DNA of 64,000 nt from an uncultured Verrucomicrobiae bacterium (GTDB lineage: Bacteria; Verrucomicrobiota; Verrucomicrobiia; Limisphaerales; Palsa-1400): NCBI GenBank assembly GCA_963702845.1, contig OY969763.1, forward strand, positions 3,424,001-3,488,000. The letters run 5' to 3'. The notes beneath the pieces are model-generated. The model ran no database searches. It was given only the letters and a program-made list of their open reading frames with translations, and was not told where the DNA came from. Every line of letters begins with the position of its first letter. The first letter of the stretch is position 1. The position numbers were made by a program, and so were the translations under genes. Shown piece after piece: positions 1 to 16,653 of this stretch.

Positions 1-805
1 CAATTCCTTTTGGCCGGCTGAAGTGCCCTGACGTGTCGCCATTGCTCCCGAACATCGAAACAAAATTCCCGCTCAGTTCAAAAACCTGCACCCGGCAATT
101 TAGAGAATCAGTCACCAGCCAATGCCCCCGCCCGTCATTGGCAATGTGTGTGGGAAAGTTAAACTCGCCCTGCCCTGTGCCCCGCTTGCCGAACTGAAAC
201 TGCAGCTTGCCTTTCAGATCAAAAACAAAAACCGCATGCGCCTGGGAATCGGCCACTGCAAGCGTGTCACCTGCAACTGCAACACCGGACGGCCGCAACA
301 ACGGTTCGGAAATGGTCCAGATCGATTTGCCGTTTTCCTTAAACGCGATCACTCGCGCCAACTCAGAATCCGCTACATAAAAAATCCCCTTCTCACGCGC
401 GACGGCGACGGGCGACGCAAAACGAACCTTGTCCACCGCCTCATAATTGCGCCACTGCTTCTTGTTCAGATCCACATACGAAATCCGCTTCGCGCCCGTA
501 TCGGTAATGCACAAATTGCCAACGTCATCGATGCAAACGCCAAACGGCTTCTGCAACGCCATTTCCTCATTTTCGTCGCCGGTGATCCAACGTCCAAACC
601 TGGCGAAAGCCGACACCCGCTGACCGATATCGCGTGGATGATTCAAGTTCCGCACGTATTCAATTCGCGCATCGTCCGGTGGGGACGGCCACACGCGCCG
701 TTTCACCACCACCGCAGGTTTCTCCCGCGCACTGGAAAAACTGCATATTCCCAGTACGACCAAAACGACAATAGCAAGCAGGCTGTAATGAACTCTTTTC
801 AACAT
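1..805 (-). CDS. NHL-repeat (6-bladed beta-propeller) protein, exported; runs off the left window edge
   Basis: Not in the ORF track; translated by hand from ATG at 805, adjacent to the stop of the porin gene. MLKRVHYSLLAIVVLVVLGIC..VWPSPPDDARIEY..QKPFGVCIDD..FASPVAVA..FYVADSE..RPSGVAV..GKRGTGQGEFNFPTHIA..LVTDSLNCRVQVF..GHFSRPKGI are NHL repeats. Confidence 0.9.
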   Translation of the reverse strand, partial: MLKRVHYSLLAIVVLVVLGICSFSSAREKPAVVVKRRVWPSPPDDARIEYVRNLNHPRDIGQRVSAFARFGRWITGDENEEMALQKPFGVCIDDVGNLCITDTGAKRISYVDLNKKQWRNYEAVDKVRFASPVAVAREKGIFYVADSELARVIAFKENGKSIWTISEPLLRPSGVAVAGDTLAVADSQAHAVFVFDLKGKLQFQFGKRGTGQGEFNFPTHIANDGRGHWLVTDSLNCRVQVFELSGNFVSMFGSNGDTSGHFSRPKGI

Positions 806-2839
806 TTAGAAAGTCCTCCTCAGTTTGAAGAACACGTAATCGCGCACCTTCGTCTCGCGCAGGTAATCGACATTATCGTGCTCGTAACCCATGTTCATTT
901 GGATCCTGCCCACCATCCAATTCAGATACGAGCGCGCGGCGAACAAGTTCTCGTTGATATTCAAACCGGTTTGATATTGGTAACCAATTTCATTTTTCCA
1001 ACTCAACCTCGGCAGCGGCCGCCAGTCATGACTGAGCATGAAATTGTAAAACGTGGAATGTTGCTTCAATTGCGTCTGAGCCGGCCCGCTCGCGCTGATA
1101 TCATCCGACCATTGTTGGTTGAAATTAATTTCGAGTGTCGAGTTGTCCGTCATATCCATCGAATAGCTCTCCGACAAATTGAAGCTCTTCAGGGTGAAAA
1201 ACGTCGAGTGCTGATCGGTGTAATCCGCAGTCAACACCAGCCTTTTCCACGTGAAATTAGCGCCCGCCTCAAACACATCTTCGTTATCGACAATGACGTC
1301 AGGCGACGACGCGTGATTATCCGTGAAACTGTATCGCGCATAGATCGACGCCATCTCGTTCCAAAAACTCAATCGTAATTGCACCGCATCACTGAAACTC
1401 GTCGAACTCGCCGTCGGATTGATTTGCACCGTGTAAGTCACCTGGATCACCGCGCCGGGTTGAATGTGGCTCGGACCAAACGGATTGATCTGAATCTGCC
1501 ACGGCTCGGAATGAATGACCGTGTAATCCGTCGTGTCAAGCGGCACAGTATTCGAGTCAACGATACTCACGAGCGTCAGCGCGCGCACATGACTCAAACG
1601 CACGATGGTGTTTGCCGGCACAACGTGCGATTCATTCGCAATTAGCAGAATCCCTCCGCTGGTGCTTTGATGATTCAAATTAAAACTCGCGCTATCACTC
1701 AAGGACAGCCGCCCCCAAGAGCCAAGCCGCTTGCTGTAGTCTTCAGTGATGGTGGTGCCTGCTGAAGTGGACTCCGTTGAGTCTGTGCTCGACCCGTTGT
1801 TCGCCCAACTCCCATGCACATCGATCGAGGAGGCAAGGCTTTCGTAGAGTTGATGCCTCAAACCAGCGCTCGCATATCCATACGTCGAATCAAATCCGTC
1901 GCCCGCGTATTGCGAATACGACCCCTGGTAATAGTTGTGCAATCGCTCAGTTAGATCCAAATCATAGTTCACCGCGCCGGTAAAATCATTCACCGACGAC
2001 AGATCGGACTCACGATTCGCTAACCGCAGCGTCGATTTCAAAATGCTTCGCTCAAAATGTTCTGTGTCCTGCACATCCACACGATTGATCGAGCTATCAT
2101 TCGAAATAGTCCTTCCCGTTCCGGTTGCATTCCCGGTCTGAACCGTGCGGTCAAACTCCGTATACTGGTAAGTGAAAAAAGTTGTGTTGTGATTCTGACG
2201 CTCGTTTTGCGCGGAAAGGTCCAGGTCTCGTTGCGTGGTAAGTGCCCTTTGAAACAACTCATCAGCATCCTCATGTGACTCGTTAAACGACAACTGCACT
2301 GGAATTCCTCCTTGCCGATATCCTGTGACAATCCCCCACGTCTCCGAATCAACCGAGGCCATGTTGAAGAACCCATACTGCACCTCATCATGGCCGCGAT
2401 CGAACGTAAACGTCGTTGCATACGGCTTGGCCGAAAGAAACTGGGCGTTAACTTTGCCGTTCACCGTGAACTCGTTGTTATCATTCGGCGCTCCATTCAC
2501 GGACGTGCGCCGCCAGGTGTAGCCGGGCTCAAACAGCGCCGAGTAGGTCAACAAATACGGGTGGTAGATGTAATTGTCCCAACCCACGGCAACTCTTGGC
2601 GAAATGTAATACCGCGTGACCTCCTGGTGGCCGCCGAACTGCGAGTCAAATGTGTCCCGCTGCGCATCCGTGTCCACGAGCATGTATTTGAATTTCGGAA
2701 TCCACCGTGAGTTCGCCTGTTCTTCTTCCCCGATCCAATCGCGATACTCCGCGCGCGCGCCAATCACAGTCACGAACATCCACAACACCATCACAACCTG
2801 TGCGATGGTCGCTGTTATTTTGGATGGTCTTAGGTTCAT
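806..2839 (-). CDS. Large outer-membrane beta-barrel (porin of a porin-cytochrome complex)
   Basis: 677 aa with a signal peptide (..VIGARA), many alternating amphipathic strands rich in Y/F/S/T/N/D and a terminal Phe (..YVFFKLRRTF). Overlaps the multiheme cytochrome gene by 4 bp. Confidence 0.8.
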   Translation of the reverse strand: MNLRPSKITATIAQVVMVLWMFVTVIGARAEYRDWIGEEEQANSRWIPKFKYMLVDTDAQRDTFDSQFGGHQEVTRYYISPRVAVGWDNYIYHPYLLTYSALFEPGYTWRRTSVNGAPNDNNEFTVNGKVNAQFLSAKPYATTFTFDRGHDEVQYGFFNMASVDSETWGIVTGYRQGGIPVQLSFNESHEDADELFQRALTTQRDLDLSAQNERQNHNTTFFTYQYTEFDRTVQTGNATGTGRTISNDSSINRVDVQDTEHFERSILKSTLRLANRESDLSSVNDFTGAVNYDLDLTERLHNYYQGSYSQYAGDGFDSTYGYASAGLRHQLYESLASSIDVHGSWANNGSSTDSTESTSAGTTITEDYSKRLGSWGRLSLSDSASFNLNHQSTSGGILLIANESHVVPANTIVRLSHVRALTLVSIVDSNTVPLDTTDYTVIHSEPWQIQINPFGPSHIQPGAVIQVTYTVQINPTASSTSFSDAVQLRLSFWNEMASIYARYSFTDNHASSPDVIVDNEDVFEAGANFTWKRLVLTADYTDQHSTFFTLKSFNLSESYSMDMTDNSTLEINFNQQWSDDISASGPAQTQLKQHSTFYNFMLSHDWRPLPRLSWKNEIGYQYQTGLNINENLFAARSYLNWMVGRIQMNMGYEHDNVDYLRETKVRDYVFFKLRRTF

Positions 2840-4029
2840 TGTGATTTAGGCAATGCCGTCAGAGCCTTCGACACGGGTTTGAGCAAATGCTTTTGCTCGC
2901 TGAAATGTGGGTTGTGACATTCGACGCACGATTTGCCTTCCGACCCTGCGTGCCCGGCCAACGCCGCCATGTCCTTCTGCTCGTGGCAATCCATACAAAT
3001 CGTCGACCCGGGCTTCGCGAGCATGAACCGCTCATTCGAAGCGTGCGGCGTATGGCACATCATGCATTCGCCGTTTTGAATCGGCGCGTGGACCGACTTG
3101 GCGACCTGAAGCTGACTCTGAAAATCATCGTGACATTGGTAACAGGTGTCGCCCCCTTTGTGCTTGAGAAGTTTTTCATTTTGCGTGGAGTGCGGATTGT
3201 GGCACACGGTGCAGTCGCCCGATTCGACCGGCGCGTGCACAAACTTGGCCGTCTTCGCGAAATCATCGTGACATTTGTAACAGAGTTCTTTGCCGGCGAA
3301 CTTCGTCAGGAACTTGTTCGGCCCGCCGTGCGGCAGATGACATTCCAGGCAACCGTTCATCTCCAGCGCGGCGTGCTTCACCGGCTCTTGCCCGATCTGC
3401 TCATGACATTTCAAACAAAGGGCGTTGCCCGTCCTCAGCAACAACTTCTTATTCGGAGATCTATGTGGATCGTGACACTTCGTGCACTGCCCCATTTCCA
3501 CTGGCTTATGCTTCACCGCAACCGGCATTGCGAAATTCTTCTTGTGACACTGCATGCAAAGCTCCAGTTGCGGCATTTTCAGAACCGGATTCAGGGCCGA
3601 CCCGCCATGGCATTGCCCACACTCCTGTTTTTCGAAGGGCGGATGGAAAACAAAGTTCGATGTCGTGTTCTGAGAAAAACGAAATGCCGAAAGCACCGAA
3701 GGCCTCTTTCTCGTTGAATCTCTCCTGGGACCAGTTTTGGTTACCTTGTTTGTGACACCCTCATCAGGAACTCCATCGAACAGAAACTTCAGGATTTTGT
3801 GCTTTTTCGATTCAGCCTTGGTCGGCGTTGCATTCGTGGATTGAACTGCCGCGGGCACGGCGTTTGTGGATTGAGCCTTGGACACGTCTGGTTTCGCCGT
3901 TTCAACCGCCTTGCTCGCGATCACACCACCGCAAAGAACGGCCGCCACAGCCACGACAACCAACAGGCTTCTACTGAGGGGATTCACTCTCTCACTCACT
4001 GGCGGATGTTCTTTGGGAGCGACGTTCAC
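2836..4029 (-). CDS. Multiheme c-type cytochrome, 11 CxxCH motifs (paired-CXXCH/cytochrome c3-like repeats)
   Basis: CGQCH, CMQCH, CTKCH, CLKCH, CLECH, CYKCH, CTVCH, CYQCH, CMMCH, CMDCH and CVECH in a repeating H-x-P..CxxCHxPH..L..LCxxCH unit; hydrophobic N-terminal signal/anchor. Confidence 0.95.
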   Translation of the reverse strand: MNVAPKEHPPVSERVNPLSRSLLVVVAVAAVLCGGVIASKAVETAKPDVSKAQSTNAVPAAVQSTNATPTKAESKKHKILKFLFDGVPDEGVTNKVTKTGPRRDSTRKRPSVLSAFRFSQNTTSNFVFHPPFEKQECGQCHGGSALNPVLKMPQLELCMQCHKKNFAMPVAVKHKPVEMGQCTKCHDPHRSPNKKLLLRTGNALCLKCHEQIGQEPVKHAALEMNGCLECHLPHGGPNKFLTKFAGKELCYKCHDDFAKTAKFVHAPVESGDCTVCHNPHSTQNEKLLKHKGGDTCYQCHDDFQSQLQVAKSVHAPIQNGECMMCHTPHASNERFMLAKPGSTICMDCHEQKDMAALAGHAGSEGKSCVECHNPHFSEQKHLLKPVSKALTALPKSQ

Positions 4030-5163
4030 TTCTTGTGACCGAAGCCGTACACGGCAACCTTGTGCGGTCCCAGTTGGTTGATGACGATCACCAGGTGCTC
4101 AACAACGAAATTTGGCGAAGTGTACTTTTTGAAATACTCAACGTCCTCGTAATCGACGGCGACTTTCGTCGGCAGGATTTGGATGCGCGGTCCTTCACCT
4201 GGATCACCAAAGAACGTCAGCAGCTTTCCTTCATCGTTAAAAATCTGGATGACCTGTGACATCGCGTCCGCCGCATAAATCTGGTGCGCGCGATCGACCG
4301 CGATTCCTTTCAGGCGAGCGAACATGCCGAGCCCATCACCCATTTCGCCAACCGTCCGAATATGCTTCCCGTCCGGCTGATAAATTTGAACGTGTCCAGC
4401 GCCCGTATCGCTGACATACAGTCGGCCCTGATCGTCTATCGCGAGATTGCCAGGTGTAAACAAGCCCGTGATCTCGTTCGTTGCAGCCGCTCCGTTAACG
4501 AGGTTCGTCACGTAATTGCGCGACGCCTTCTCATAAATACGAACGTTGTGCGATTGCACGTCCGCCACATAAATCCGATCAGCGCCAATCGCGACATCGC
4601 GCGGTTTCATCTCACCCGTCTTGCCGATGGTGCCGGCGTAAGCGCCCTGTTTATCAAAAACAACAACCTGCTCGCGCGTGCTGTCAGCGACGTAAGCCGT
4701 GCCATCGGTTTTATCGATTGCGATGTTCAACGGCGTTCGCAACGCACCTTCGCCTGTCGCCTCAAGCATCCCGATCTTCTGCTCCTTCAGGTCCACCACC
4801 AACACCGTGCCCAGCGCCGTGTCGCAAACGAAAATCTTATGGTCGTACGTCAGTCACTCCATAGGGCTTGCTTATTTCCTTCGTGGCCTCCTGCTGGCCA
4901 GTAATGAACGATTTGAAACTGTGGCTCTTTTTTTGGCGAAATGATTTCTCCGAAGCAAACCCTGTCAGATACTGCAAACGCGGCGCATCCGGCGGCGCCG
5001 GATAGAAAATATCTGTGCGCTGGTTCGCCGGGGGTTTTTCAGCTCCCTTCTTCTCGCTCTTGCCGAGCGCTGAAGCAGCACCACTGGTCAAAAAGCCAGT
5101 GATCATCGTTGCGAACACGACTCCCAGAACTGTTTGTTGAAACGTGTGTTGGAGGTTCTTCAT
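4026..5163 (-). CDS. NHL-repeat beta-propeller protein (split by one frameshift near 4850)
   Basis: ORF 4837..5298 (likely start MKNLQHTF at 5163; signal peptide; FYPAPPDAPRLQY..KPYGV) continues in the frame of ORF 4026..4805 (..KIFVCDT..AYVADS..KPRDVAI..IYVADV..LYVSDTG..FARLKGIAVD). Confidence 0.85.
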
Positions 5164-5425
5164 ATGTGCAATTTTCCTATGCCTCCAAGTGTAGAAACCG
5201 GTGAAAAACTGCACTAACCGTATCTTGCTATTGTCCCCGCCTAAATTGGTTAGCCCTCTCGATAAGAAGGCCAGAATGGATATGTGATAGATTGACATCG
5301 TTGCAACTAAATATGTTCAGTCTTTTCGGAGCCTGCCTTTTATGCGGCTCAACATTTACGCCGCCCCGAACTTCTGGACCCAATTAACACCGTTAGGCTC
5401 GTCATGACCGCCGCCTCCCAAGTAC

Positions 5426-5459
5426 AAAAAACAGGGCCACATGTTTCCATGTGACCCTG
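5426..5459 (-). terminator. Rho-independent terminator downstream of the tetraheme cytochrome gene
   Basis: Minus strand reads CAGGGTCACATG-GAAA-CATGTGGCCCTG-TTTTTT: a 12-bp stem (one G-U pair), GAAA tetraloop and U-tract. Confidence 0.85.
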
Positions 5460-5491
5460 ATGAAACGCAGCGTTAAGCTGCATGCAGTTGA

Positions 5492-6283
5492 TTACTTATC
5501 GTGGCACGTCAAACACAGCTGGCCACCTTGAAGGGGAACCATCAGCGCATGGTCGTATTGAATTGTGCCGGAAGAACCGATCGTTTCATGAATGTCATGG
5601 CACGAGGCGCATTCCATCGTACGGGTACCAGCGGGTCCCTTAATCATGTGCGAGATCATCGTTCCATTAACGACAGGTTTCAGCTGAGGATCCGCTGCCA
5701 CTGCCTGGTCGTAATTGACGCCGAGCGGGTGCATGTGGGTCAGGTCTGTGCTGCCACCAACCGTCTCAACAGCAAAACTTGGAGCAAAGACGTTCGTCGT
5801 CACTGTTCCGTCACCGTTGAATGTGGTTTTGCCATAAGCCTGGTTGATACCGATTGAGCCGTCATGGCAGCTCAAGCAGGCAGCCGACGATCCCAACGAA
5901 GTGATCGCACCGAGACCAAGCGCGTTAAACGTGGCCGATCCGCCTTGATCATACGTCATATAACGGGTGGTCGCGTTGCTCGCCGCATTGTGGTTCCACA
6001 ACGGCGCATTCACAGCGCTGTAAGACGGGGCTTTGTGCGGAATGTGGCATACCTGGCAGGGATTTTCATAATACGCGGCTGCATTGACGCTGCCGTTTGC
6101 ATTGGTCTTAACTCCACCACCCCATGCAAACTTGGCGGCTTGTACCTGGCTGAGCGCACCAGCTCCTCCTGTGGAACTGAAGTCGTGCACGCTACCTATG
6201 ATAGTCGCACTTACAGTCGTCGCCGATAAGGCAACTACTGCTCCCAGGGCTAAGCCTGCGAGGATTGTTTTTGGTGTTGTCAT
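5492..6283 (-). CDS. Secreted tetraheme c-type cytochrome, OmcE-like
   Basis: Signal peptide (..TTVSA) followed by HDFSS, CQVCHIPH, PLWNH, CLSCHDG, DLTHMHP, ECASCHDIH and QLCLTCHDK-stop. Motif order matches my recollection of Geobacter OmcE. Confidence 0.85.
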   Translation of the reverse strand: MTTPKTILAGLALGAVVALSATTVSATIIGSVHDFSSTGGAGALSQVQAAKFAWGGGVKTNANGSVNAAAYYENPCQVCHIPHKAPSYSAVNAPLWNHNAASNATTRYMTYDQGGSATFNALGLGAITSLGSSAACLSCHDGSIGINQAYGKTTFNGDGTVTTNVFAPSFAVETVGGSTDLTHMHPLGVNYDQAVAADPQLKPVVNGTMISHMIKGPAGTRTMECASCHDIHETIGSSGTIQYDHALMVPLQGGQLCLTCHDK

Positions 6284-6428
6284 ACTTAGGTTCGCTTTCT
6301 ACTAGCTAGTTGTTCGATTTCGATGTCGTTTTGGAGATGCATCGTGTGATGCACCCACTTCTGGACTCGATTCGTCGTTCTAGCGCTAGACCGCGGATCG
6401 TTTCCAAAATTGTTTTGTTGTTTGTTTT

Positions 6429-7550
6429 TCATGCTGCGCATGGAACTGCTCCGTACACCGGAACAGCCCGTTCTGATTGCCTGGGCGCTTTCACTGGCTT
6501 GCCCACCGGTCCAGTCAATTTCTCCATCAATTCAATCGTGTGCTGCTCGACGATCGCACGGCACGTCTCGATCTCCTGCTGGCGCAGACGAACGTTCTCC
6601 TTCACGATTTGTTCCAGATCATCGATGTCGTAGAGGAACACGTTCTCGAGTTCCTGCACGTTGGGATCGATGTCGCGCGGCACGGCGATGTCGATTAAAA
6701 CCAGAGGACGATTGCGTCGCGTTTGCATGACTGCGGCGACATCATCGCGGTCGAGCACCGTCTCAGGGCACCCGGTCGAACTGACGACAATGTCGGCATT
6801 GCGCATCTCAGCGATGCCATCGTCCATGAAATTCACTGCGCGCGCGCCGAACTCGTCGGCCAACTTTTGTGCGCGTTCCATCGAGCGGTTTGCCACGATG
6901 ACCGATTTGATGCCCTTCTTGGCCAGATGCCGCACACACGCTTCTCCCATTTTACCTGCGCCAACGATCATCACCGTTTTATCGGCCAGCGCGGTTCCGA
7001 AAATCTTTTCAGCAAGTTGAAGCGCGACACTACCGACTGACGTAGCGCCGCGCTGAATTTGGGTTTTGCTCCGGATCGCTTTGGCGGTCTGCAGGGCCTT
7101 TTGAAACATCCGGTTGGTAACAGAGCCCGTCAGTTTAACTTGATACGCTTTTTCGTAAGCACCTTTGACCTGACCGGCGATTTCCGTTTCGCCAAGAACC
7201 ATCGAGTCGAGTCCGCTCACCACAGAAAATAAATGCCGCGCCGCGCCGTCGTTCTCGTGCGCATATATATAGGGCGTCACATCAAAGCCGCCGCGCGCCA
7301 CCGAATTCAGAACGGTTTCAGCCGTGCCACGATCCGGCGCAACGCCATAAATTTCCACGCGATTGCAAGTGGACAAAACGACCACTTCGCTGAGACCCTT
7401 TTTCACCTTCAGTTGGCACCCTGTGCAGGCGAGGGCATGTTGCGAAATCGCCATCTTTTCGCGCACTTCAACTGGTGCCGTTTTGAAGCTGATACCGGCG
7501 ACAAAGGGAACGCTGGTCTGATTTGTTGTTCTAATGAAATTCATATTCAT
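6429..7550 (-). CDS. hemA: Glutamyl-tRNA reductase
   Basis: TAPVEVRE, LSTCNRVEIY (catalytic Cys), SGLDSMVLGETEIAGQVK, GAGKMG NADPH-binding motif and DIAVPRDID. C-terminus is short. Confidence 0.97.
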   Translation of the reverse strand: MNMNFIRTTNQTSVPFVAGISFKTAPVEVREKMAISQHALACTGCQLKVKKGLSEVVVLSTCNRVEIYGVAPDRGTAETVLNSVARGGFDVTPYIYAHENDGAARHLFSVVSGLDSMVLGETEIAGQVKGAYEKAYQVKLTGSVTNRMFQKALQTAKAIRSKTQIQRGATSVGSVALQLAEKIFGTALADKTVMIVGAGKMGEACVRHLAKKGIKSVIVANRSMERAQKLADEFGARAVNFMDDGIAEMRNADIVVSSTGCPETVLDRDDVAAVMQTRRNRPLVLIDIAVPRDIDPNVQELENVFLYDIDDLEQIVKENVRLRQQEIETCRAIVEQHTIELMEKLTGPVGKPVKAPRQSERAVPVYGAVPCAA

Positions 7551-7863
7551 GAATTCGATGGGCTAATCATTGTCGTTTCGTTCAAAATTCGGCTGCACCG
7601 AAATTGCGAATTTCATGCACTCTTTTGAGTGAGTATTTGGGCTACACACGCGCGCAGTGATCGGGCGCCGGCTCACTCCACATTTATTGTCAAACATCAC
7701 ATAGAGATGCTGACCCGTACCGTAAGTTCCCTCTACACAACCATTGCCAATGCATAACCATTTTTTGCGCCCGAACCAAATCCGGTTAACTCTCAAAACG
7801 CGACCCGCCACCCTACCGGTTTAGCAAAAAATGTTAGGTGTATGACAAGTGCGGTGGAGTGCG

Positions 7864-7884
7864 AGTTGAGACTCAGTCTTAACT
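7864..7884. promoter_or_regulatory. Fur-like operator (10-1-10 inverted repeat) upstream of feoA
   Basis: AGTTGAGACT-C-AGTCTTAACT (one mismatch), 16 bp upstream of the feoA ATG; resembles TGAGAATnATTCTCA-type Fur boxes. Confidence 0.55.
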
Positions 7885-7900
7885 TGGAGCCAATAAAAGT

Positions 7901-8233
7901 ATGAAACTTTCAGACTTGTGGCACATCGCGAAAGAAGCAGTCACCTCGACTGGTAGCGCGTATCGCTCTGCGACCTCCGTGACGCTGGCCTGTTCAAGTC
8001 CAGCCACCTACCCGCTCAGCCGTGTCAAAGCCGGCGCTGAAGTTCGCATCAAAGAACTCTCCACCCCTGAAGATGTTTCAAAGCGCCTGCGCGAAATCGG
8101 CTTCTGCGAACAACAAGTCCTGAAACTATTGGTAAGCCAATCCAGCCTGATCTGTTTAGTCTGCAACGCGCGAGTTGCTCTCAGTTCAGATATCGCCGGG
8201 ATGATTATGGTAGAACCGGTCCGCCCCAACTAA
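7901..8233 (+). CDS. feoA: FeoA-family (SH3-like) ferrous iron transport protein A
   Basis: PLSRVKAGAEVRIKEL..KRLREIGF..LICLVCNARVALS..IMVEP is the typical FeoA pattern. No adjacent feoB. Confidence 0.85.
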   Translation: MKLSDLWHIAKEAVTSTGSAYRSATSVTLACSSPATYPLSRVKAGAEVRIKELSTPEDVSKRLREIGFCEQQVLKLLVSQSSLICLVCNARVALSSDIAGMIMVEPVRPN

Positions 8234-8427
8234 GTTAGTCCAGCGGTAATCAGGGACGATTTCGCCGGTCATCGCTCCACCATCTTTCCGTAAAAGACCC
8301 TGACAAACGATCAGTCGAAGTCGTATTGAATCCCCGAAACTCCCCCGCTAACACTCACGATCAGTCCGAGCAAAATCGTCCTTTGTGTTTGTTTAACTTC
8401 TTGGAATCCGCCGCTAAAAGGAGTAAC

Positions 8428-9636
8428 GTGTTTGACACCGCTGTGAAACAGATTCACAAACCATTCCGCCTCGCCCTTCTCCTATTGGCGCTGCTGATAC
8501 CTGCCATCGCAGCGCTTGCCGCAGACAACGCCACCTTAATTTCCGTTTCCATCACCAACGGCACGCCCGTCATGCCGCGCACCGTCTTCACCCAGAGTTG
8601 GACCTTCCAAAACACCGGCACCACAACGTGGTCATCCGGCTCCAGCTATACACTGAACCTCATCGGCACTGACTCCCTGGGGGCCATTCCGCTCCATACC
8701 AATACCACAAAGACCTTCACCACAGTCGCGCGAATCTCCAGCAACACATCCATCGCACCCGGTGCGCAAGGCACATTCAAAATGATGTTCATAGCGCCCG
8801 AGAAACCGGGCCTCGTCTCCAACGTATTTCAATTAAACAACTCCAGCGGCGTCTTCTTCGGCCCGCTAGTCGCCGTGCAAATCAACGTCCAAAACGCTGG
8901 CTCAACCAACCAATACGATCGCGCCAGGGCCATTTCATACGCCAACAACTACGCAGCTTACATTGCCAGCGACGGATATTTTTGGACCAACGGCAACGTG
9001 CCCGCAGACTGGTCCTACTTTTACTACGGTGCCGGCACGCCCGTCCCCAGCAACCTCACCGGTGACGACTGCGCTCATTTCGTTTCCTGTTGCATTGGCC
9101 GCCAGCCGGCGCAATGGGGCGGCGGCCTCTACATTCCCAGCCGAACCTCACCGACCTACGGCGAACCCGGTGCCGGTCGTCTCGTCAACACCGTCCTCAT
9201 CGGCGGCTGTTACGCCGAAGAAGTCTCCTCCCTTTCTGAAATGGAACCCGGCGACGTCATTGGCTGGAACTGGGAAGGCGACCACAACATTGCTAATCTC
9301 GACCACGTCACCATGTACACGGGCAACGGCCACGTCGCCTCACACGCCGCCTCAGTCCTCAACACCTCTGCAGCCACCTGGTATGGTTCAAGCGCCGTCC
9401 ACCATTACATCCACATCTTCGACGCCCCATCCCTTGACTGCGCCGTCGCCAACAACAAAATGATCTTCAGTTGGACCACCAACTGGGCCGGCTACAACCT
9501 TTATTCCTCAACCAACGTGGCTGCTGCAGCTGCTTGGAAAAAAATCACGACAACACCCAGCAAAGTTGGCAACACCTACAAACTCACCAACACCATCGCC
9601 TCCCCCAACCTCTTCTACCGCCTCTCAATGCCTTAA
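8428..9636 (+). CDS. Secreted amidase (Amidase_6/NlpC-P60-like Cys-His) with N-terminal NBR1-like Ig domain and C-terminal FYRL tail
   Basis: AAGGAG precedes GTG at 8428; signal peptide; FTQSWTFQNTGTTTW (NBR1/FW-type Ig); YDRARAISYA..DDCAHFVSCCI..PGDVIGW..DHVTMY; ends NLFYRLSMP. Confidence 0.75.
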   Translation: MFDTAVKQIHKPFRLALLLLALLIPAIAALAADNATLISVSITNGTPVMPRTVFTQSWTFQNTGTTTWSSGSSYTLNLIGTDSLGAIPLHTNTTKTFTTVARISSNTSIAPGAQGTFKMMFIAPEKPGLVSNVFQLNNSSGVFFGPLVAVQINVQNAGSTNQYDRARAISYANNYAAYIASDGYFWTNGNVPADWSYFYYGAGTPVPSNLTGDDCAHFVSCCIGRQPAQWGGGLYIPSRTSPTYGEPGAGRLVNTVLIGGCYAEEVSSLSEMEPGDVIGWNWEGDHNIANLDHVTMYTGNGHVASHAASVLNTSAATWYGSSAVHHYIHIFDAPSLDCAVANNKMIFSWTTNWAGYNLYSSTNVAAAAAWKKITTTPSKVGNTYKLTNTIASPNLFYRLSMP

Positions 9637-10415: not shown

Positions 10416-12839
10416 TTATGCTCTGACGCGCGATTGAAGTTGGACTTGAGCGAGCACTCGGGCCTGAACTTGACTATACAAACGCTGACACCGTCCGGTG
10501 GTATCTTCTAACCGGACCGCAAGCCCTAATGGAACCGACGTCGTGTCTTTACACCATGATGCGGCAGACAGTGAAACGGCCAAAATGTAGTCATTCGCGC
10601 TGAACTCTGATTCGTGATCGTGCCACTCAAAAACATCACGCTGCAGAGTGCCGACAGAGCGCCTCTGAATTTTCAGCTTTCCGGGAAGATGATCAACTTG
10701 CACATCAGACGTTAAGTTTTCCTCATCATCGTTGCGTTGCATCATTGAAACAATCTGGTCAGTAGGCTTATCCCCTCGAAACAATCGGAATTTCAATCGT
10801 GCACCGAGATACTCAGCGACACCCCACTGTTGCACCGGTGGAGCACTCGCGACGGCTATGGTTATCCTTTTCAACCCATTTTCTGAATCGCGGATTTCTA
10901 CAGGCACAGGAATCCGAAACAATCCCACTCTATCAACTAAGATTGCACCGTCGTAGAACAGGATGACAGAATGCGGTGCACAATCGGTCGCGCGACTCGC
11001 AATCGGCAACCCATACCCAACGCATTTTAGCAAATCTTCCGCTCTCGCAAAAACAGGATCTGTCGGCGCTTCGGCTGACAACGCCAAAAACGCACGAAGA
11101 AGGGGTGCTGAGGGTTGAGCGATTAGTGGCCGCAAATCCCGAACGATAGATGCTAATTGGTTTGCGACCCGCGGGCCAGCGTAGCTGTTACCGTTCCCAT
11201 GTTGAAGTGGAGGAGTTAACTTGTTACTCGCCATTACAACGTTGGTTCCAGCATTGGAGGCGACCCGCTGTTGAGGATCGCGAACAAGATTTCCGCCTCG
11301 TTCTACAAAGTCTGGTTTGACTGCTTGGCCGAACCCAGGACCTGTCCGCGTAAATGGTGAGGGCTGGTTTTCTCGTGCAATTGGGACCGATGGCGCAACG
11401 ATCACCCTTTCAGAGGGCGCAAGCGACCCGACGGTAACAGCTAACGCCGCTTGTCCAGGATCAAGGATTTTCGCGAGCGCCTGGCGCAAGTACAATGGAT
11501 ATTGCTGATTAGCAGAGAGGTCTTCGACATCAGCGGGAGAGAGGTTGCCTGTAATTGCGACGAACACGACATCGAAGTCTCGCGAAAGCTGGTCCACCGT
11601 CCGCGCCACCCATGAATTGCGGGGCACAAGGTTGCCTCCGGCTTGATTCCAAATGTGCCCGACAATGCTAAACGAAAGCACGAAGATGCGGACCCCATTC
11701 GGACGGAAGTGAGCAACTACATCCCTGAGGATTCTCGATAGGAGTCGGGCTTCCCGTAAACGCTGGACGCCATCGTCATCAATGTACGGGGTGTCCAGCT
11801 CTCCTGCATCGTTGGTTATGCGGGCGGATGCGACGAATGCAGATGCCGAGTTGGCAGACCCGTGGCTCATGTCAATTTGATAGTACGCCGCTAACGACGC
11901 TACGCCTGACCCGTGTCCCACGCCATCTGCATCAGGAGCAAAACCATCAATAAAACTGTGTGATATTTGCGTGCGTAGTACAGGTTGCAGAAATGGGTTA
12001 GCACCGGCTACACCGGTATCGATGACGCAAATCGTCTCGGCATCATCGGGCGGCGTGCTCAGCGTGGTGTTCGAGACCGAAAAGCTCTGGTAAACCGTCT
12101 CAAACGTTTCGAAATGTGGTCGCTTCTCAAACAAAACGATTTGACGCCACCACCGCGGATCCTCAACAAGCGCCTTCAACTTCTCACCTGTGCTGGATAA
12201 GACAGCTCTTGCACCAACACCGGCAAAGTCCGTTTCGTAAATTCGGCCGTCGATTGCGCCGAGAAACTCACGCAGTTCCGTTAAGCTACGCTCCACCTCG
12301 CGACGACGTGTCTCTAATCGCGTTGCAAAGCTTGCCACCTCTATTTCGTAAACAACGAATTCTTGGTGAATAAGTGATTCATAGTCGGCTGCAAATTCCG
12401 GCGACAACCGAGCTTTAGGATCAGCAACTGCAATCGATGAAATGCGGGTGACAAACTCAACTCCCGTTGGCCGTTCAGAAACAGTGTCAGCCGCGATTTT
12501 GCCAAGACGTTCTTCCAGCGTCTCTAAACTTTTTTTCTTCGGTACGACCAAAGTCTCGGTCGAAGTCGAAGGGCCCATCGGCATAAGACCGGTTCCACGA
12601 AGGTCCAATTTTGTCAGCGGTCTATCATGCGTCAGTTTAAGAAATGCCGCTCGCCTCTGCTCAGGTGTAAGTTGACGCACAACTGTCGCAATTTCTCGAA
12701 GTTCCGTTCGAAGGGTGTGACATTTTGTGGTCCTTTCCGAAACGGCAACGGGTGGCAACCTAGGAAATGGTAACCTTTCGCGCCTACGGGCGCTTATATG
12801 AGGTTGAGAGATTTGAATTGGCGGGTATTCGCTATTCAT
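10416..12839 (-). CDS. S8 (subtilisin-like) serine peptidase, IetS/Y4bN-like
   Basis: Triad motifs VIDTG, GHGSGVAS and GNSYAGP; SPFTRTGPG..KPDFVERGGN; VGYGLP. No signal peptide; 4-bp overlap with the upstream ATPase. Confidence 0.9.
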   Translation of the reverse strand: MNSEYPPIQISQPHISARRRERLPFPRLPPVAVSERTTKCHTLRTELREIATVVRQLTPEQRRAAFLKLTHDRPLTKLDLRGTGLMPMGPSTSTETLVVPKKKSLETLEERLGKIAADTVSERPTGVEFVTRISSIAVADPKARLSPEFAADYESLIHQEFVVYEIEVASFATRLETRRREVERSLTELREFLGAIDGRIYETDFAGVGARAVLSSTGEKLKALVEDPRWWRQIVLFEKRPHFETFETVYQSFSVSNTTLSTPPDDAETICVIDTGVAGANPFLQPVLRTQISHSFIDGFAPDADGVGHGSGVASLAAYYQIDMSHGSANSASAFVASARITNDAGELDTPYIDDDGVQRLREARLLSRILRDVVAHFRPNGVRIFVLSFSIVGHIWNQAGGNLVPRNSWVARTVDQLSRDFDVVFVAITGNLSPADVEDLSANQQYPLYLRQALAKILDPGQAALAVTVGSLAPSERVIVAPSVPIARENQPSPFTRTGPGFGQAVKPDFVERGGNLVRDPQQRVASNAGTNVVMASNKLTPPLQHGNGNSYAGPRVANQLASIVRDLRPLIAQPSAPLLRAFLALSAEAPTDPVFARAEDLLKCVGYGLPIASRATDCAPHSVILFYDGAILVDRVGLFRIPVPVEIRDSENGLKRITIAVASAPPVQQWGVAEYLGARLKFRLFRGDKPTDQIVSMMQRNDDEENLTSDVQVDHLPGKLKIQRRSVGTLQRDVFEWHDHESEFSANDYILAVSLSAASWCKDTTSVPLGLAVRLEDTTGRCQRLYSQVQARVLAQVQLQSRVRA

Positions 12840-13855
12840 GAAGCTCGTGAGCCCGAACGAGACGCAGCATGCAGTTTTTTACGCCATGCGTGACACTCCT
12901 TCACAATTTCATCCACGGGAGTAATAGAAGTGCGCTCAAGGAGTTTGGTTTTGGCAACCTCTCTTACGGCGCGATCAATTTCTGCATATGAATAGCTTTT
13001 TAACTTCCGGGCAGCGCCGACCAAATCTCCTTGAACACGGAGGCCGCCGGTTAAAAACCGAAGTTGTGCCGCGCGTTCCGGTTCGCCCGGAAGGGGGAAT
13101 TCGATAACGTCGTCAAATCGCCGCCAAATCGCTGGGTCAAATGTCTGCGAATGGTTGCTGGCCAAAATCACCAGGCTATGTTTCGGTGAGAAATAGTCCA
13201 AAGCCTGTAACAAGGAGTTCACAACACGCCGCAGCTCTCCAACGTCATTACGATCTCCTCGTGCCTTCGCAACTGCATCTGCTTCATCGATCAGGAGCAC
13301 CATCGGTCTACCTTCTGCGACGGCAAATACTTTCTGCAAATTCGAAGCTGTTTCGCCAACATAGCTGGTTATTAGACTACTTAACCGAACCACGCCGCAT
13401 GGAATGCCGAGATCACTCGCTATTAGACGCGCAGCTGCGGACTTCCCACATCCAGGAGGACCCCAGAACAACAACCTTCGTTTCGGCTGCAGTCCACCCT
13501 GCTCAAGCTGGTGAACCGCTCGATATTCTAAAGCTATGCGATCTAGCGAGCTCTGAGTATCGCGACTGAAAAACAGTTGCTCACGACGAAGTCCTTCGGG
13601 TACGAATGTGACCAACGAATCAGCCTGCCGCGTTAAAACCTGAACTGTTGCGGGAACCGAGTTGCCGTTTCGTTTTATTTGAGTCAATGCCTCTCGTAGA
13701 GCTTTTGCTTCGCTCGGGCGGTTGCTCATACTCAACTCACGGACGATGGTTTCGGCATTTCGAGAGAACCCAGTCTCATCGTGCATCGCATGCGCGAGCA
13801 CGAGCTTGCGGATGCAATCAAAAATCTCAGGAATCGGCATCGTCGGTTTCAGCAT
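12836..13855 (-). CDS. AAA+ ATPase, IetA-like partner of the S8 peptidase
   Basis: Walker A GPPGCGKS, SYVGETASNL, Walker B LLIDEAD, DVGELRRVVNSLLQ and DPAIWRRFD. Confidence 0.92.
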   Translation of the reverse strand: MLKPTMPIPEIFDCIRKLVLAHAMHDETGFSRNAETIVRELSMSNRPSEAKALREALTQIKRNGNSVPATVQVLTRQADSLVTFVPEGLRREQLFFSRDTQSSLDRIALEYRAVHQLEQGGLQPKRRLLFWGPPGCGKSAAARLIASDLGIPCGVVRLSSLITSYVGETASNLQKVFAVAEGRPMVLLIDEADAVAKARGDRNDVGELRRVVNSLLQALDYFSPKHSLVILASNHSQTFDPAIWRRFDDVIEFPLPGEPERAAQLRFLTGGLRVQGDLVGAARKLKSYSYAEIDRAVREVAKTKLLERTSITPVDEIVKECHAWRKKLHAASRSGSRAS

Positions 13856-14232
13856 ACGGACTTTATCTTACAGCTACAAGCCGAGCGTATTCTGATGAAA
13901 AACAGCGTTCAAGGACGTTACGCATCATTTTGTTTCGTTGTTACGCCGTACCGTAAGCCCGAATCATGCAAGCCACTTTCTGTTTTTCAAGCTGCCGCGC
14001 GCGCCTTTGCTTTGACGAAGTCACATACGGTCACCCAAAAAAAAGTTTTTAAAAACGACCTCGAATCGCAGAAAAGTCCACGCCCGCTTACGTTTTGCTC
14101 CATTTTGCACTGCAAAAAACCACGCATTTTCGCGCCATTTTTTGCACGTTCACCATCGTCCTTGCCAGTTTACTCTCTGCAGCTCGCTATTTCCGTTGTA
14201 GCTCCAGGGCGGTTTCGCTAAAACTATCCCTA

Positions 14233-15494
14233 ATGCCCTCATCCGTCGCCGAAACCACCGCGCCCACGACCGCCGTCGCGTCTAATCGCGAAAAATGGCT
14301 CGTGCTCGCCGCTGCCTTTTTCGGCTGGATGTTCGACGGACTTGAACAAGCCGTTTTCCCACTCGCCGGTCGCCCTGCCTTGCAGGACCTCTTGCACACC
14401 CAAAACGACGCCATCATCGGCCAATACTTCGGTTACATCACTGCCTTGTTTTTAATCGGTGCTGCCCTCGGCGGCTTCGTCTTCGGCTGGCTCGGGGACC
14501 GCTTCGGCCGCGTTCGCACAATGACTTGGAGCATCCTCACCTACTCCATCTTCACCGGGCTCTGCTACTTCGCGAACAGTCCGTACCAACTCGGCGCGCT
14601 CCGTTTCATTTCCGCCATCGGCATGGGCGGCGAATGGGCTCTCGGCGTCGCGCTCGTCATGGAATTCTGGCCTGAAAAAGCGCGCCCACTTCTCGCCGGC
14701 GCAATCGGTGCAGCTTCCAACGCCGGATATGCCTTGATTTCCTTCCCGGAATGTTCATCAAAATCGACCAAACCTCCTGGCGCTGGGTCATGCTCGCAGG
14801 CGCGGCGCCGTCCTTGCTCAGCTTGCTAATCGCGTATCTTCGTCCCCGAATCCGACGTTGGAAAGCCGCCGTCGAAACAGCCAAACCCATCCCGTCCGCG
14901 AAGTATTCTCACGCGCAATGTTGCGTCGGACCCTCCTTGGAATTGCCATTGCCGCCATTGCTCTGATCGGCACATGGGGCTCCGTGCAATGGATCCCGAC
15001 ATGGGTCAACAAAATGGTCGGGCATCAAAACCCACACGCCGCACCCACTTCACTCCTCTTCGCAGCCATTGGCGCGATGATCGGATGCTTTGTCGGTTCC
15101 CTGCTGGCCGAGCATTCGGCCGCCGCTGGACCTACTTCCCCTCTGCCTCGCATCGTGGATCATCACCACAACCCTATTCCGCAGCTTCGATCATTACAGC
15201 CTCTGCTTCGCCGTTAATGTTCGGCCTCGTCGGCCTGTTCACCGCCGCATTCTACGGCTGGTTGCCGCTCTATTTCCCGAACTCTTCCCCACCCGCATGC
15301 GCGCCACCGGCCAAGGCATGTGCTTCAATTTCGGTCGCATCTTCGCCGCCGCTGGCGTCTTTTCAAGGCAACTCGTCACCGCCTACAACGGCAGCTACCC
15401 ACACGCCGGCACGATGGTCGTGCTCGTTTACTTCGCCGGCATGGTCGTCATCTGGTTCGGCCCCGAAACAAAAGGCAAACCTCTGCCGGACTAA
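14233..15494 (+). CDS. MFS transporter (several frameshifts, probably sequencing errors)
   Basis: GWMFDGLE, GWLGDRFGRVR (motif A), GMGGEW, PELFPTRMRATGQG..FNFGR and GPETKGKPLPD, spread across 4-5 overlapping ORFs. Confidence 0.85.
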
Positions 15495-15596
15495 TCGAAA
15501 CGAATCCTCTTTCCAAAAACTTGGTGTCTTGGTGCCCTGGTGGTTAAAACGTTTCTATTTGAATTTTCTGCGGCACGGGGTTTACTTCCCGCTTCG

Positions 15597-16653
15597 ATGA
15601 AAACGAAAGCCTACGCCTCTGCCGGTGTTGACATTGATTTGGGCAACCGAGTCAAAAGCACATTCCCGCAGCCTACTCGCTTCCACCCATCGTCCTGAAG
15701 TCCTCGGCAAAGTCGGCGGCTTCGGCGGCCTGTTCGCTTTCGACACCAAAAAATATCGCCAACCCGTTCTCGTCTCCAGCGCCGACGGCGTCGGCACGAA
15801 ACTCAAAATCGCGTTCGCGATGAACAAGCACGACACCGTCGGCGCCGACCTCGTCAATCATTGCGTCAACGACATCGCCGTCCTCGGCGCTGAACCCCTG
15901 TTCTTCCTCGACTACATCGGCACCGGCAAATTGAAGCCCAAAGTTTTCCAGCAACTCATCACCGGTTTCGCTCGCGCCTGCGCCAAAACAATTGCGCCCT
16001 CATCGGCGGCGAAACCGCCCAAATGCCCGGCTTCTATCAGGAAGGCGAATACGACGTCAGCGGCACCATCGTTGGCGTGGTTGAAAAATCAACAATGCTC
16101 GATGGCAAAACCATCAAACCTGGCGACACCATTATCGGCATCGCCTCGAGCGGCCTGCACACAAACGGCTATTCGCTCGCGCGCAAAATCCTCTTCGAAA
16201 AACTGAAGCTCAAGCCCACTTCACGGTTGCCCGGCATTCGCAATTCCGTCGGCAAAGAACTGCTCAATGTTCACGTCAGTTACGGCCCGCTCGTGCAGAA
16301 GTTGCTGAAACAATTTAATCGTGGCAACAACAGACCGCGTCATCAAAGGCCTCGCTCACATCACTGGCGGCGGCTTCATCGACAACATTCCGCGCGTGCT
16401 GCCAAAAACCTGCGACGTCCTCATTCAAAAAGGTTCCTGGCCTGTCCTGCCGATTTTTCAACTACTCCGCGACAAAGGCGGCGTCGACGAACAGGAATTG
16501 TATCAAGTGTTCAACATGGGCATCGGCATGACAGCTATCGTCGCGACTGAAAAATCGAAGCCGTCCTCAAATCCATCCACGCTCAAAAACACAAAGCCTG
16601 GATCATCGGCAAGTGTCTGTCGCGGTCGGGGAGTTGTAAGATTGTCTAGTTAA
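15597..16653 (+). CDS. purM: Phosphoribosylformylglycinamidine cyclo-ligase (frameshifted)
   Basis: [65 protein letters not shown] and FNMGIGM across several frames. Confidence 0.93.

Follow-up and report, generated by a model that had tools for sequence, protein, structure and literature searches.

A candidate OmcE-type cytochrome nanowire cluster in Limisphaerales (Verrucomicrobiota), with a possible anchor cytochrome

Cytochrome nanowires of the OmcE type are encoded by gene clusters that, in their minimal form, comprise an OmcE subunit, a large barrel, two propeller lipoproteins, and two multiheme cytochromes, and for which five phyla have been named (PMC13712944). Solved structures are available for the OmcE filament of G. 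sulfurreducens (PDB 7TFS) and the OmcE bundle of D. soudanensis (PDB 9YUQ; PMC13712944), and the export, initiation, and anchoring of cytochrome nanowires are stated to be open questions in papers of 2025-2026 (PMC13712944; PMC12307469). Here, we describe a gene cluster at the left end of a 64,000-nucleotide window (C1:3424001-3488000, C1 being the single contig of a 6.03-Mb genome, G000, that is 89.8% complete). We consider it best explained, with a probability of roughly 0.6, as an OmcE-type nanowire system whose inner-membrane feed is encoded in the same gene run.

Related systems have been described from the same phylum. He et al. (2017; PMC5615132) reported verrucomicrobial clusters of a porin and an 8-heme periplasmic cytochrome, proposed their involvement in humics reduction, and stated that homologues of Geobacter-type outer-surface cytochromes were absent. 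Fe(III) respiration has been reported for cultured Limisphaera (PMC13608581). A preprint distinguishes four transcribed types of extracellular electron transfer (EET) cluster in anoxic peat, with EET4 in Limisphaerales, and a figure legend therein lists OmcE-like and MtrA-like cytochromes of 8-13 hemes (Fiorito et al., bioRxiv 10.64898/2026.05.27.727921). OmcE clusters in five other phyla and transcribed Limisphaerales porin-cytochrome clusters are therefore already known, at least from the main texts of these sources, and the literature comparison also took in PMC9473688, PMC12954529, and PMC13013709. No description of a verrucomicrobial nanowire or of an OmcE-fusion anchor was found in the literature searched, which consisted of titles and abstract openings and left most subscription papers outside it; the nanowire reading for Verrucomicrobia and the OmcE-fusion as a candidate wire anchor may be new.

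The cluster is a run of 18 co-directional minus-strand genes (22.4 kb) that reaches left to C1:3409098. The original prediction, made from the window alone, had described hemA, a tetraheme cytochrome, a propeller, an 11-heme cytochrome, a 677-amino acid (aa) protein, and a second propeller in one direction, with a divergent feoA; all are present, on the minus strand apart from feoA. The last four overlap or abut as described (gaps of -4, -4, and 0 bp between propeller 1, the 11-heme cytochrome, the barrel, and propeller 2), and the suspected continuation past the left edge amounts to 12 further co-directional genes over 14.9 kb. The probable verrucomicrobial origin was likewise borne out: because the 90% cluster of the barrel protein includes four records named Limisphaerales bacterium, we assign G000 to the order Limisphaerales, Verrucomicrobiota. 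The parts that we consider most informative, namely the inner-membrane half and the OmcE-fusion cytochrome, lie beyond the left edge, outside the window on which the original prediction was based. Across the whole run, 67 CxxCH and three CxxxCH motifs add up to 70 heme motifs; per-protein counts of 4, 11, and 11 are far above chance, the maxima in 2000 shuffles per protein being 1, 3, and 2. The elements on which the nanowire reading turns are the following (window positions, unless given on C1):

5492..6283, minus strand: OmcE-type tetraheme cytochrome, 263 aa, with signal peptide; candidate filament subunit (PDB sequence and profile matches, distal His)
5432..5459, minus strand: hairpin resembling an intrinsic terminator, 3' of omcE, 12-bp stem, U6 (longest stem of 12 sites in positions 1-8400; z -3.9)
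4026..5163, minus strand: NHL beta-propeller 1, frameshifted near 4851 (PF01436; two frames against intact relatives)
2836..4029, minus strand: 11-heme cytochrome, MtrA-like, with a conserved FDGVP motif; candidate wire from periplasm to barrel (PF09699, six times)
806..2839, minus strand: predicted outer-membrane beta-barrel, 677 aa, about 28 strands, inserted beta domain at about residues 397-475, C-terminal Phe (AlphaFold2 model, fold match)
1..805, minus strand, whole gene C1:3423777-3424805: NHL beta-propeller 2, 342 aa (PF01436, E 7e-32; 223 bases beyond the left edge)
C1:3422049-3423773, minus strand: 574-aa cytochrome with an N-terminal OmcE domain and a further 7 CxxCH and 1 CxxxCH; candidate wire anchor or adaptor (7TFS match)

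Matched by description, this set corresponds to the OmcE clusters of G. sulfurreducens and D. soudanensis in having a tetraheme cytochrome with eight conserved His, two propellers, two multiheme cytochromes (here with 11 and 12 hemes), and one large barrel, and to their minimal form in that no glycosylation block was seen in the G000 locus. It differs in its phylum, Verrucomicrobia being absent from the five named in the main text of PMC13712944; in its flanks, which are hemA and ImcH/CbcL/NrfD genes rather than purHDE-resB-ccsB and ffh (PMC13712944); and in having an OmcE domain in one of its cytochromes, no anchor or tip candidate being reported for the operons described there. By its sequence, then, the locus is an OmcE nanowire cluster in every testable feature except the lipoboxes.

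Searched against 177,635 PDB sequences, the tetraheme protein matched 9YUQ (E 7e-19) and 7TFS (E 1e-8), both over most of its mature length, the seven remaining matches being short and weak; a profile of 61 homologues retrieved these two entries alone (E 2e-26 and 4e-16). Its four CxxCH motifs and four distal His (33, 83, 185, and 232, each present in 61/61 homologues) are in register with both structures, and its C-terminus lies two residues past the last CxxCH, as in both. A metagenome scan with the tetraheme alignment, of which we used the best 80 of 446 confirmed loci (78 tetrahemes), extends the pattern: all four distal-His motifs are retained in 76/78 tetrahemes, and the flush C-terminus is shared by 78/80 relatives. 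The original prediction had pointed to OmcE, and, with eight heme His aligned to 7TFS and 9YUQ, the protein is assigned as an OmcE homologue. The hairpin after omcE fits a subunit produced in excess; a similar hairpin follows the subunit gene in 31/78 related loci, any of three base shuffles having passed in 5/78, and terminator-like sites in positions 1-8400 show no overall excess (12 found, 10.4 expected by chance). No sigma-70 promoter signal rose above chance, and the codon-adaptation rank of omcE (41st percentile), computed against a self-selected reference that is not a highly expressed gene set, is uninformative on expression.

These observations bear on whether a filament is formed at all. 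A short Mtr-like conduit could instead be envisaged, in which the 11-heme cytochrome and the fusion would span the barrel in the manner of MtrA and MtrC and the tetraheme protein would be a monomeric surface or secreted carrier. The resemblance of the barrel and its neighbouring cytochrome to the Mtr complex would suit such an arrangement, as would a ninth conserved His (98) in the tetraheme protein and the preprint of Fiorito et al., which models Mtr-like conduits and whose main text does not use the word nanowire. The four distal His, the flush C-terminus, and the terminator suit a polymer subunit, and two propellers together with OmcE are the signature of a nanowire cluster (PMC13712944). 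We rate the filament-free conduit as unlikely and think that the tetraheme protein, judged by these features, probably polymerizes.

The 12-heme fusion cytochrome is encoded next to propeller 2. Its residues 12-212 match 7TFS with E 5e-29, which is stronger than the tetraheme protein's own OmcE match, and its C-terminal 363 aa have no relative in the PDB. Among the 120 best fusion homologues, 117 have 11 CxxCH, and retention of the four OmcE distal His is at least 99%; 17 conserved non-motif His are available for 12 hemes, with His221 (100%) directly after the OmcE domain. In a tree of 19 pairs from loci with both genes, fusion domains and stand-alone subunits split with support of 100/99, a pattern that we read as an old duplication whose products have been co-inherited. 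Proteins resembling the fusion are found in Acidobacteriota, Planctomycetota, Nitrospirota, and other phyla. An anchor has been expected to be OmcE-like with a spare His, and no anchor or tip candidate is described among the operons examined (PMC13712944); apart from its extra hemes, the fusion agrees with this expectation, its His counts being compatible with the role and not proof of it. We put it forward as the wire anchor only tentatively. In loci L093 and L102, the fusion is present as two genes (about 217 aa and 4 hemes, then about 400 aa and 7), reflecting either separable modules or a contig break.

The 677-aa protein has no match in Pfam, NCBIfam, or PDB sequences, although its family counts 1,006 representatives at E<=1e-30. 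It was modelled by AlphaFold2 from 69 sequences with a predicted local distance difference test (pLDDT) score of 86; the DSSP listing of the model gives 28 long strands and, inserted after the 17th, a small beta domain that itself has no Pfam match. The best fold match among 48,161 chains was 6R2Q_B, the barrel of the Mtr complex (Z 21.7, root-mean-square deviation 8.0 A, 466 residues aligned; next Z 17.2). Foldseek matches were confined to large barrels of a generic kind (FimD, Cir, LptD, and MtrB, with a template modelling score <0.4), and we therefore do not claim a relationship to ushers. As modelled, the protein folds as an outer-membrane barrel closest to MtrB, in line with the beta-barrel that the original prediction had proposed. 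The best PDB match of the 11-heme family profile was 6R2Q_A (E 4e-25), which we take to be MtrA, the PDB record carrying an unrelated name. Barrel fold and cytochrome sequence thus point to the same Mtr entry, which we count in favour of the nanowire system. Heme number in the 11-heme family ranges from 5 to 23 through added repeats, and a lipobox-like Cys followed by F[FL][DE]GVP occurs in 21/25 aligned members, G000 not among them; we infer a wire tethered to the outer membrane and adjustable in length. A complex prediction of barrel residues 45-677 with 11-heme residues 70-385 scored 0.12 against a mark of 0.32 and, controls not having been folded, is evidence neither way.

Several named systems can be compared with this half of the locus. 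It is like MtrCAB of Shewanella (6R2Q) in barrel fold and MtrA-like neighbour, and unlike it in its inserted beta domain, its propellers and OmcE, and its family range of hemes. By family cut-offs, the locus is not MtrAB/MtoAB: the 11-heme protein scores 127.9 bits against DmsE/MtrA TIGR03508, below the cut-off of 192.2. The barrel has no MtrB- or PioB-family sequence match and 6R2Q_B as its closest fold. PCC3 clusters have median heme numbers of 34 and 21, porins of up to 42 strands, and a conserved inner-membrane protein of about 300 aa with five helices (PMC5566968). The comparison with PCC3 drawn in the original prediction consequently fails, the G000 locus having 11-12 hemes, about 28 strands, and membrane proteins of 495, 581, 754, and 621 aa with other domains. 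In the osc operon (Shen et al. 2025), as described in PMC13194489 and PMC13712944, a nanowire gene stands with folding and porin-like secretion genes; G000 is alike, by description, in having a nanowire-type gene beside accessory and porin-like genes, and membership in osc (OmcS) was rejected in view of a tetraheme rather than hexaheme subunit whose profile matches OmcE entries only. The EET1-4 clusters of Fiorito et al. are likewise syntenic porin-multiheme sets, with EET4 from the same order; they are modelled as Mtr-like conduits, and the main text contains none of the terms nanowire, NHL, propeller, ImcH, and CbcL. Compared by that main-text description, EET4 and the G000 cluster probably belong to the same family. 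The clusters of He et al. share the phylum and a porin adjoining a periplasmic multiheme cytochrome, the latter with 8 hemes. A second porin-cytochrome locus of G000 (C1:2685888-2689074) encodes a DmsE/GSU2203-like cytochrome (7 CxxCH and one atypical motif) and, after it, a probable porin that is split in two frames and has one CxxCH; this locus fits the description of He et al. better than the main cluster does, and it also fits those of Limisphaera.

Conservation was assessed in 401 Limisphaerales genomes (G000 included) and in a phylum-wide sample of 401 genomes; related loci are not independent owing to kinship, and the counts are descriptive rather than statistical tests. In the order, the OmcE domain is matched in 42/401 genomes and the barrel in 44/401, all 42 lying within the 44; across the phylum, the barrel was found in 3/401, i.e. 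G000 and two genomes outside its class, both with the same core. Nine further genomes, picked from the double matches for their long contigs, all have the order omcE-propeller-cytochrome-barrel-propeller-fusion (9/9, one with an extra cytochrome after omcE), with hemA directly upstream of omcE in 7/9. Among the 22 metagenome loci with at least 7 kb downstream, a propeller is present in 20, the fusion in 20, the barrel in 15, and barrel plus fusion in 14, and in six of the seven loci without a barrel match the fusion follows an unannotated gap. The conservation anticipated by the original prediction is thus evident in both co-occurrence and six-gene order. Variants were also seen: L067, L083, L089, L121, and G463 have an extra 850-900-aa octaheme (or 667-aa heptaheme) gene directly after omcE, possibly for a tip or second surface cytochrome; G049 and G386 (L025 1606-5583; L034 12330-16100) have an added 20-23-heme cytochrome of 1250-1330 aa and a 13-heme cytochrome; G386 has two omcE copies; and G283 has a five-heme OmcE-like gene.

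Not every part of the cluster is intact in the assembly. Both propellers announced by the original prediction carry PF01436, the first not being one open frame: its N-terminal piece runs from the ATG at 5163 to a stop at 4837 and its C-terminal piece continues down to 4026. Contigs of a relative with about 93% identity (two runs, one sample) have one base fewer at 4851, full-length copies of propeller 1 occur in 19 barrel-bearing metagenome loci, and 6/56 conserved G000 genes tested also span two frames, from which we conclude that the break is probably an assembly indel; the near-identical sequence pieces listed for X1 do not reach across 4851. The sequencing runs listed comprise six of DNA, each with a small share, and none of RNA, and we claim no habitat. 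A locus decaying in the G000 strain would also account for the frameshift, a ccsB in pieces, and lost lipoboxes. The two-frame genes and a likewise split COX1 gene point to assembly indels, and the 17 other genes of the run are open and each alignable in one frame with relatives, which leaves decay a most improbable account. A lipobox-like Cys is found in propeller 1 of 13/19 relatives and propeller 2 of 11/18; the lipobox of G000 propeller 2 is atypical. Elsewhere, an MFS-like transporter and a purM-like gene (named by translation; window 14095-16206, plus strand) are out of frame, further signs of assembly indels.

To the left of the fusion, the run continues with genes for a candidate periplasmic relay and candidate quinol oxidases, all on the minus strand:

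C1:3421287-3421994, minus strand: 235-aa secreted protein (no significant match; recurs beside the cluster in relatives)
C1:3420120-3421286, minus strand: 388-aa cytochrome with 9 CxxCH and 1 CxxxCH (PF09699)
C1:3419118-3419552 and 3418674-3419006, minus strand: two monoheme cytochromes c (PF00034)
C1:3417105-3418592, minus strand: ImcH-like quinol oxidase, 495 aa (PF03264; 3 transmembrane helices, adjoining CxxxCH, six CxxCH)
C1:3413159-3417012, minus strand: tetraheme cytochrome, Fe-S protein, NrfD/DsrP-like membrane protein, and 148-aa protein (PF13247, PF03916, PF00027)
C1:3410852-3413116 and 3409098-3410963, minus strand: two CbcL-like fusions of multiheme c and cytochrome b, with 11 and 9 hemes (PF01292 and N-terminal CxxCH arrays)

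ImcH is described as a protein of 495-519 aa with three N-terminal helices, an adjoining CX3CH, six CX2CH, and a NapC/NirT domain, reported solely from Fe(III) reducers (PMC6295460); compared by this description, the 495-aa protein has every feature, and an ImcH-like gene is adjacent to the cluster in 4/9 further genomes and in G003, G012, and G021. CbcL combines an N-terminal nonaheme domain with a C-terminal FdnI-like cytochrome b (PMC6295460; 10.1101/2023.05.03.539133), to which the 621-aa protein corresponds (9 CxxCH, PF01292, match to 1KQF_C), its 754-aa paralogue having 11 hemes. The Fe-S/NrfD module scores 158 bits for DsrO (cut-off 200) and 409 bits for DsrP (cut-off 350), and its NrfD/DsrP-like protein (C1:3413610-3415355) contains, in mid-sequence, a cyclic-nucleotide-binding insert (PF00027, E 2e-17), which the 422-aa homologue in G581 apparently lacks.

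NrfD/Fe-S modules normally feed periplasmic reductases. The presence of such a module, together with the 70 heme motifs in one locus, could suggest an envelope electron store or periplasmic enzyme chain, serving for example in oxic-anoxic buffering, with the barrel merely an export pore. Domain annotation (Pfam/NCBIfam) recognized no catalytic subunit among the genes of the run, and that OmcE domain and barrel occur together almost one to one also speaks against this account, which we hold to be very improbable. The original prediction had named three observations that would tell against it (a 677-aa protein without a barrel fold, cytochromes that are purely periplasmic enzyme subunits, and a lack of conservation), none of which was encountered. 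Extracellular electron transfer by the locus is, judging from its predicted proteins, very likely.

The same hardware could run inward, with Fe(II), reduced humics, or partner cells as electron sources, given that CbcL and MtoC homologues occur in Fe(II) oxidizers (PMC6295460), that the genome has five COX1-family matches (two being halves of one gene), and that the run includes two small monoheme cytochromes. The adjacent ImcH-like gene, the absence of a detectable RuBisCO from the 90% complete genome, and the affiliation of characterized OmcE systems with acceptor-reducing bacteria (PMC13712944) make this quite improbable. An outward direction is likely. The Fe(III) respiration reported for Limisphaera and the transcription reported from peat are in keeping with the nanowire system as a whole.

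The support genes of the cluster are:

6429..7550, minus strand: hemA, second copy in the genome (TIGR01035, 365 bits, cut-off 210)
7901..8233, plus strand: feoA, orphan, divergent (PF04023, E 5e-10)
7866..7882, no strand: 17-bp palindrome, 18 bp upstream of feoA (sole site in the window, 0.04 expected)

Of the heme and iron genes that the original prediction had ascribed to the locus, hemA stands, as a second copy (the other is at C1:1591623), and the iron genes reduce to one orphan feoA; the sole FeoB of the genome is at C1:824k, 2.6 Mb away, with feoA-like genes of its own. Near-copies of the palindrome occur upstream of and inside that feoA-feoB locus (C1:826440 and 825786). The TTGAGACTnAGTCTCAA-type palindromes as a whole (window 7866-7882; C1:825786, 826440, 2824169, 2824197, and 3067837) mark feoA and the feoAB locus and stand twice at a gene encoding a secreted protein, and from its sequence context the element is a probable iron or metal regulator box of a small iron regulon. 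System II cytochrome maturation genes are present. In G003 and G012 (L021 1341-6323; L024), four genes that we take to be hemE-hemN-hemG-hemH-like abut the cluster; their G000 homologues are at C1:5.92 Mb.

Against an OmcE-type nanowire in G000 weigh the following points. Sequence identity of the tetraheme protein to the solved OmcE proteins is low; its heme-free AlphaFold2 model is poor (pLDDT 58), and a fold search with this model gave no match at E<=0.001, Foldseek ranking 7TFS at the top with E 1.3. His98 is invariant in the close subfamily and Arg in both solved proteins, making a ninth conserved His, and a nine-His tetraheme, it has been argued, could cap a wire rather than extend it (PMC13712944). 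Of 80 wider relatives, 53 have His at position 98, 22 have Arg, and 1 has Lys, with 4 unmatched there, and because the position varies, His98 is probably not an obligatory heme ligand. The G000 11-heme protein and propeller 1 are without the lipobox Cys common in relatives, and propeller 1 and ccsB are both broken in the assembly. In Limisphaera, the cytochrome loci connected with iron reduction consist of 1-3 genes, unlike the G000 cluster (PMC13608581). Finally, Geobacter reportedly does not need OmcE to reduce Fe(III) oxide or to produce current (PMC13194489), and deletion of GSU0616, a neighbour of omcE, raised reduction rates (PMC1829397); such doubts on the physiological weight of OmcE in Geobacter extend to the G000 cluster.

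The remainder of the window includes, directly after feoA, a 436-aa secreted protein that combines an NBR1-like Ig domain with a weak putative amidase domain (8326-9636, plus strand); an AAA ATPase and S8 peptidase (10416-13855, minus strand; PADLOC IetA E 2e-72, IetS E 1e-58), i.e. an IetAS-type defence or toxin-antitoxin module; and, at 37001-63910 (minus strand), a run of secreted proteins of very large size (M36 peptidase with DUF11, Calx-beta, DUF5122 propellers), a number of genes that have no Pfam match, a 5'-3' exonuclease fragment, and a secretin.

In the nanowire system that we propose, menaquinol would be oxidized by the ImcH-like, CbcL-like, and NrfD-type proteins, and the small and 10-heme periplasmic cytochromes would relay electrons to the 11-heme MtrA-like cytochrome, which would dock in or under the barrel of about 28 strands. 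The 12-heme fusion would couple this conduit to a polymer of the tetraheme protein, itself exported with the aid of the two propellers and, because a terminator follows omcE, made in excess, with heme supplied by the extra hemA. The genes, their homologies, the conserved ligands, the modelled barrel fold, and the synteny are what the analysis shows; polymerization, the outward direction, partner binding, the use of the barrel for export, and the choice of acceptor are the inferred elements of this scheme. As a heterotroph that has heme-copper oxidase genes as well, the organism would reduce external acceptors under anoxia, e.g. humic quinones or Fe(III).

Going further, we suggest, as a possibility to which we give distinctly less than even odds, that Limisphaerales build true OmcE-type nanowires with the fusion as the missing anchor, and hence an unbroken heme path from menaquinol to a micrometre-long filament. 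Through the usual His-heme bond, the OmcE domain of the fusion would attach to the end of the filament, the eight hemes of the fusion's C-terminal part would lead to the barrel and the MtrA-like wire, and the length of that periplasmic wire would be tuned by heme repeats. Given the look-alikes in several phyla, the fusion would, if this is true, be a general anchoring solution for a widespread and mostly uncultured class of nanowires. The locus offers a named anchor candidate beside the subunit gene, in a single 22-kb cassette transferable to a laboratory host. If such wires exist, about a tenth of the sampled Limisphaerales genomes would encode long-range electron transfer. This would matter for carbon flow and the suppression of methane in anoxic soils and in peat, from which the preprint of Fiorito et al. 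reports transcription of such clusters.

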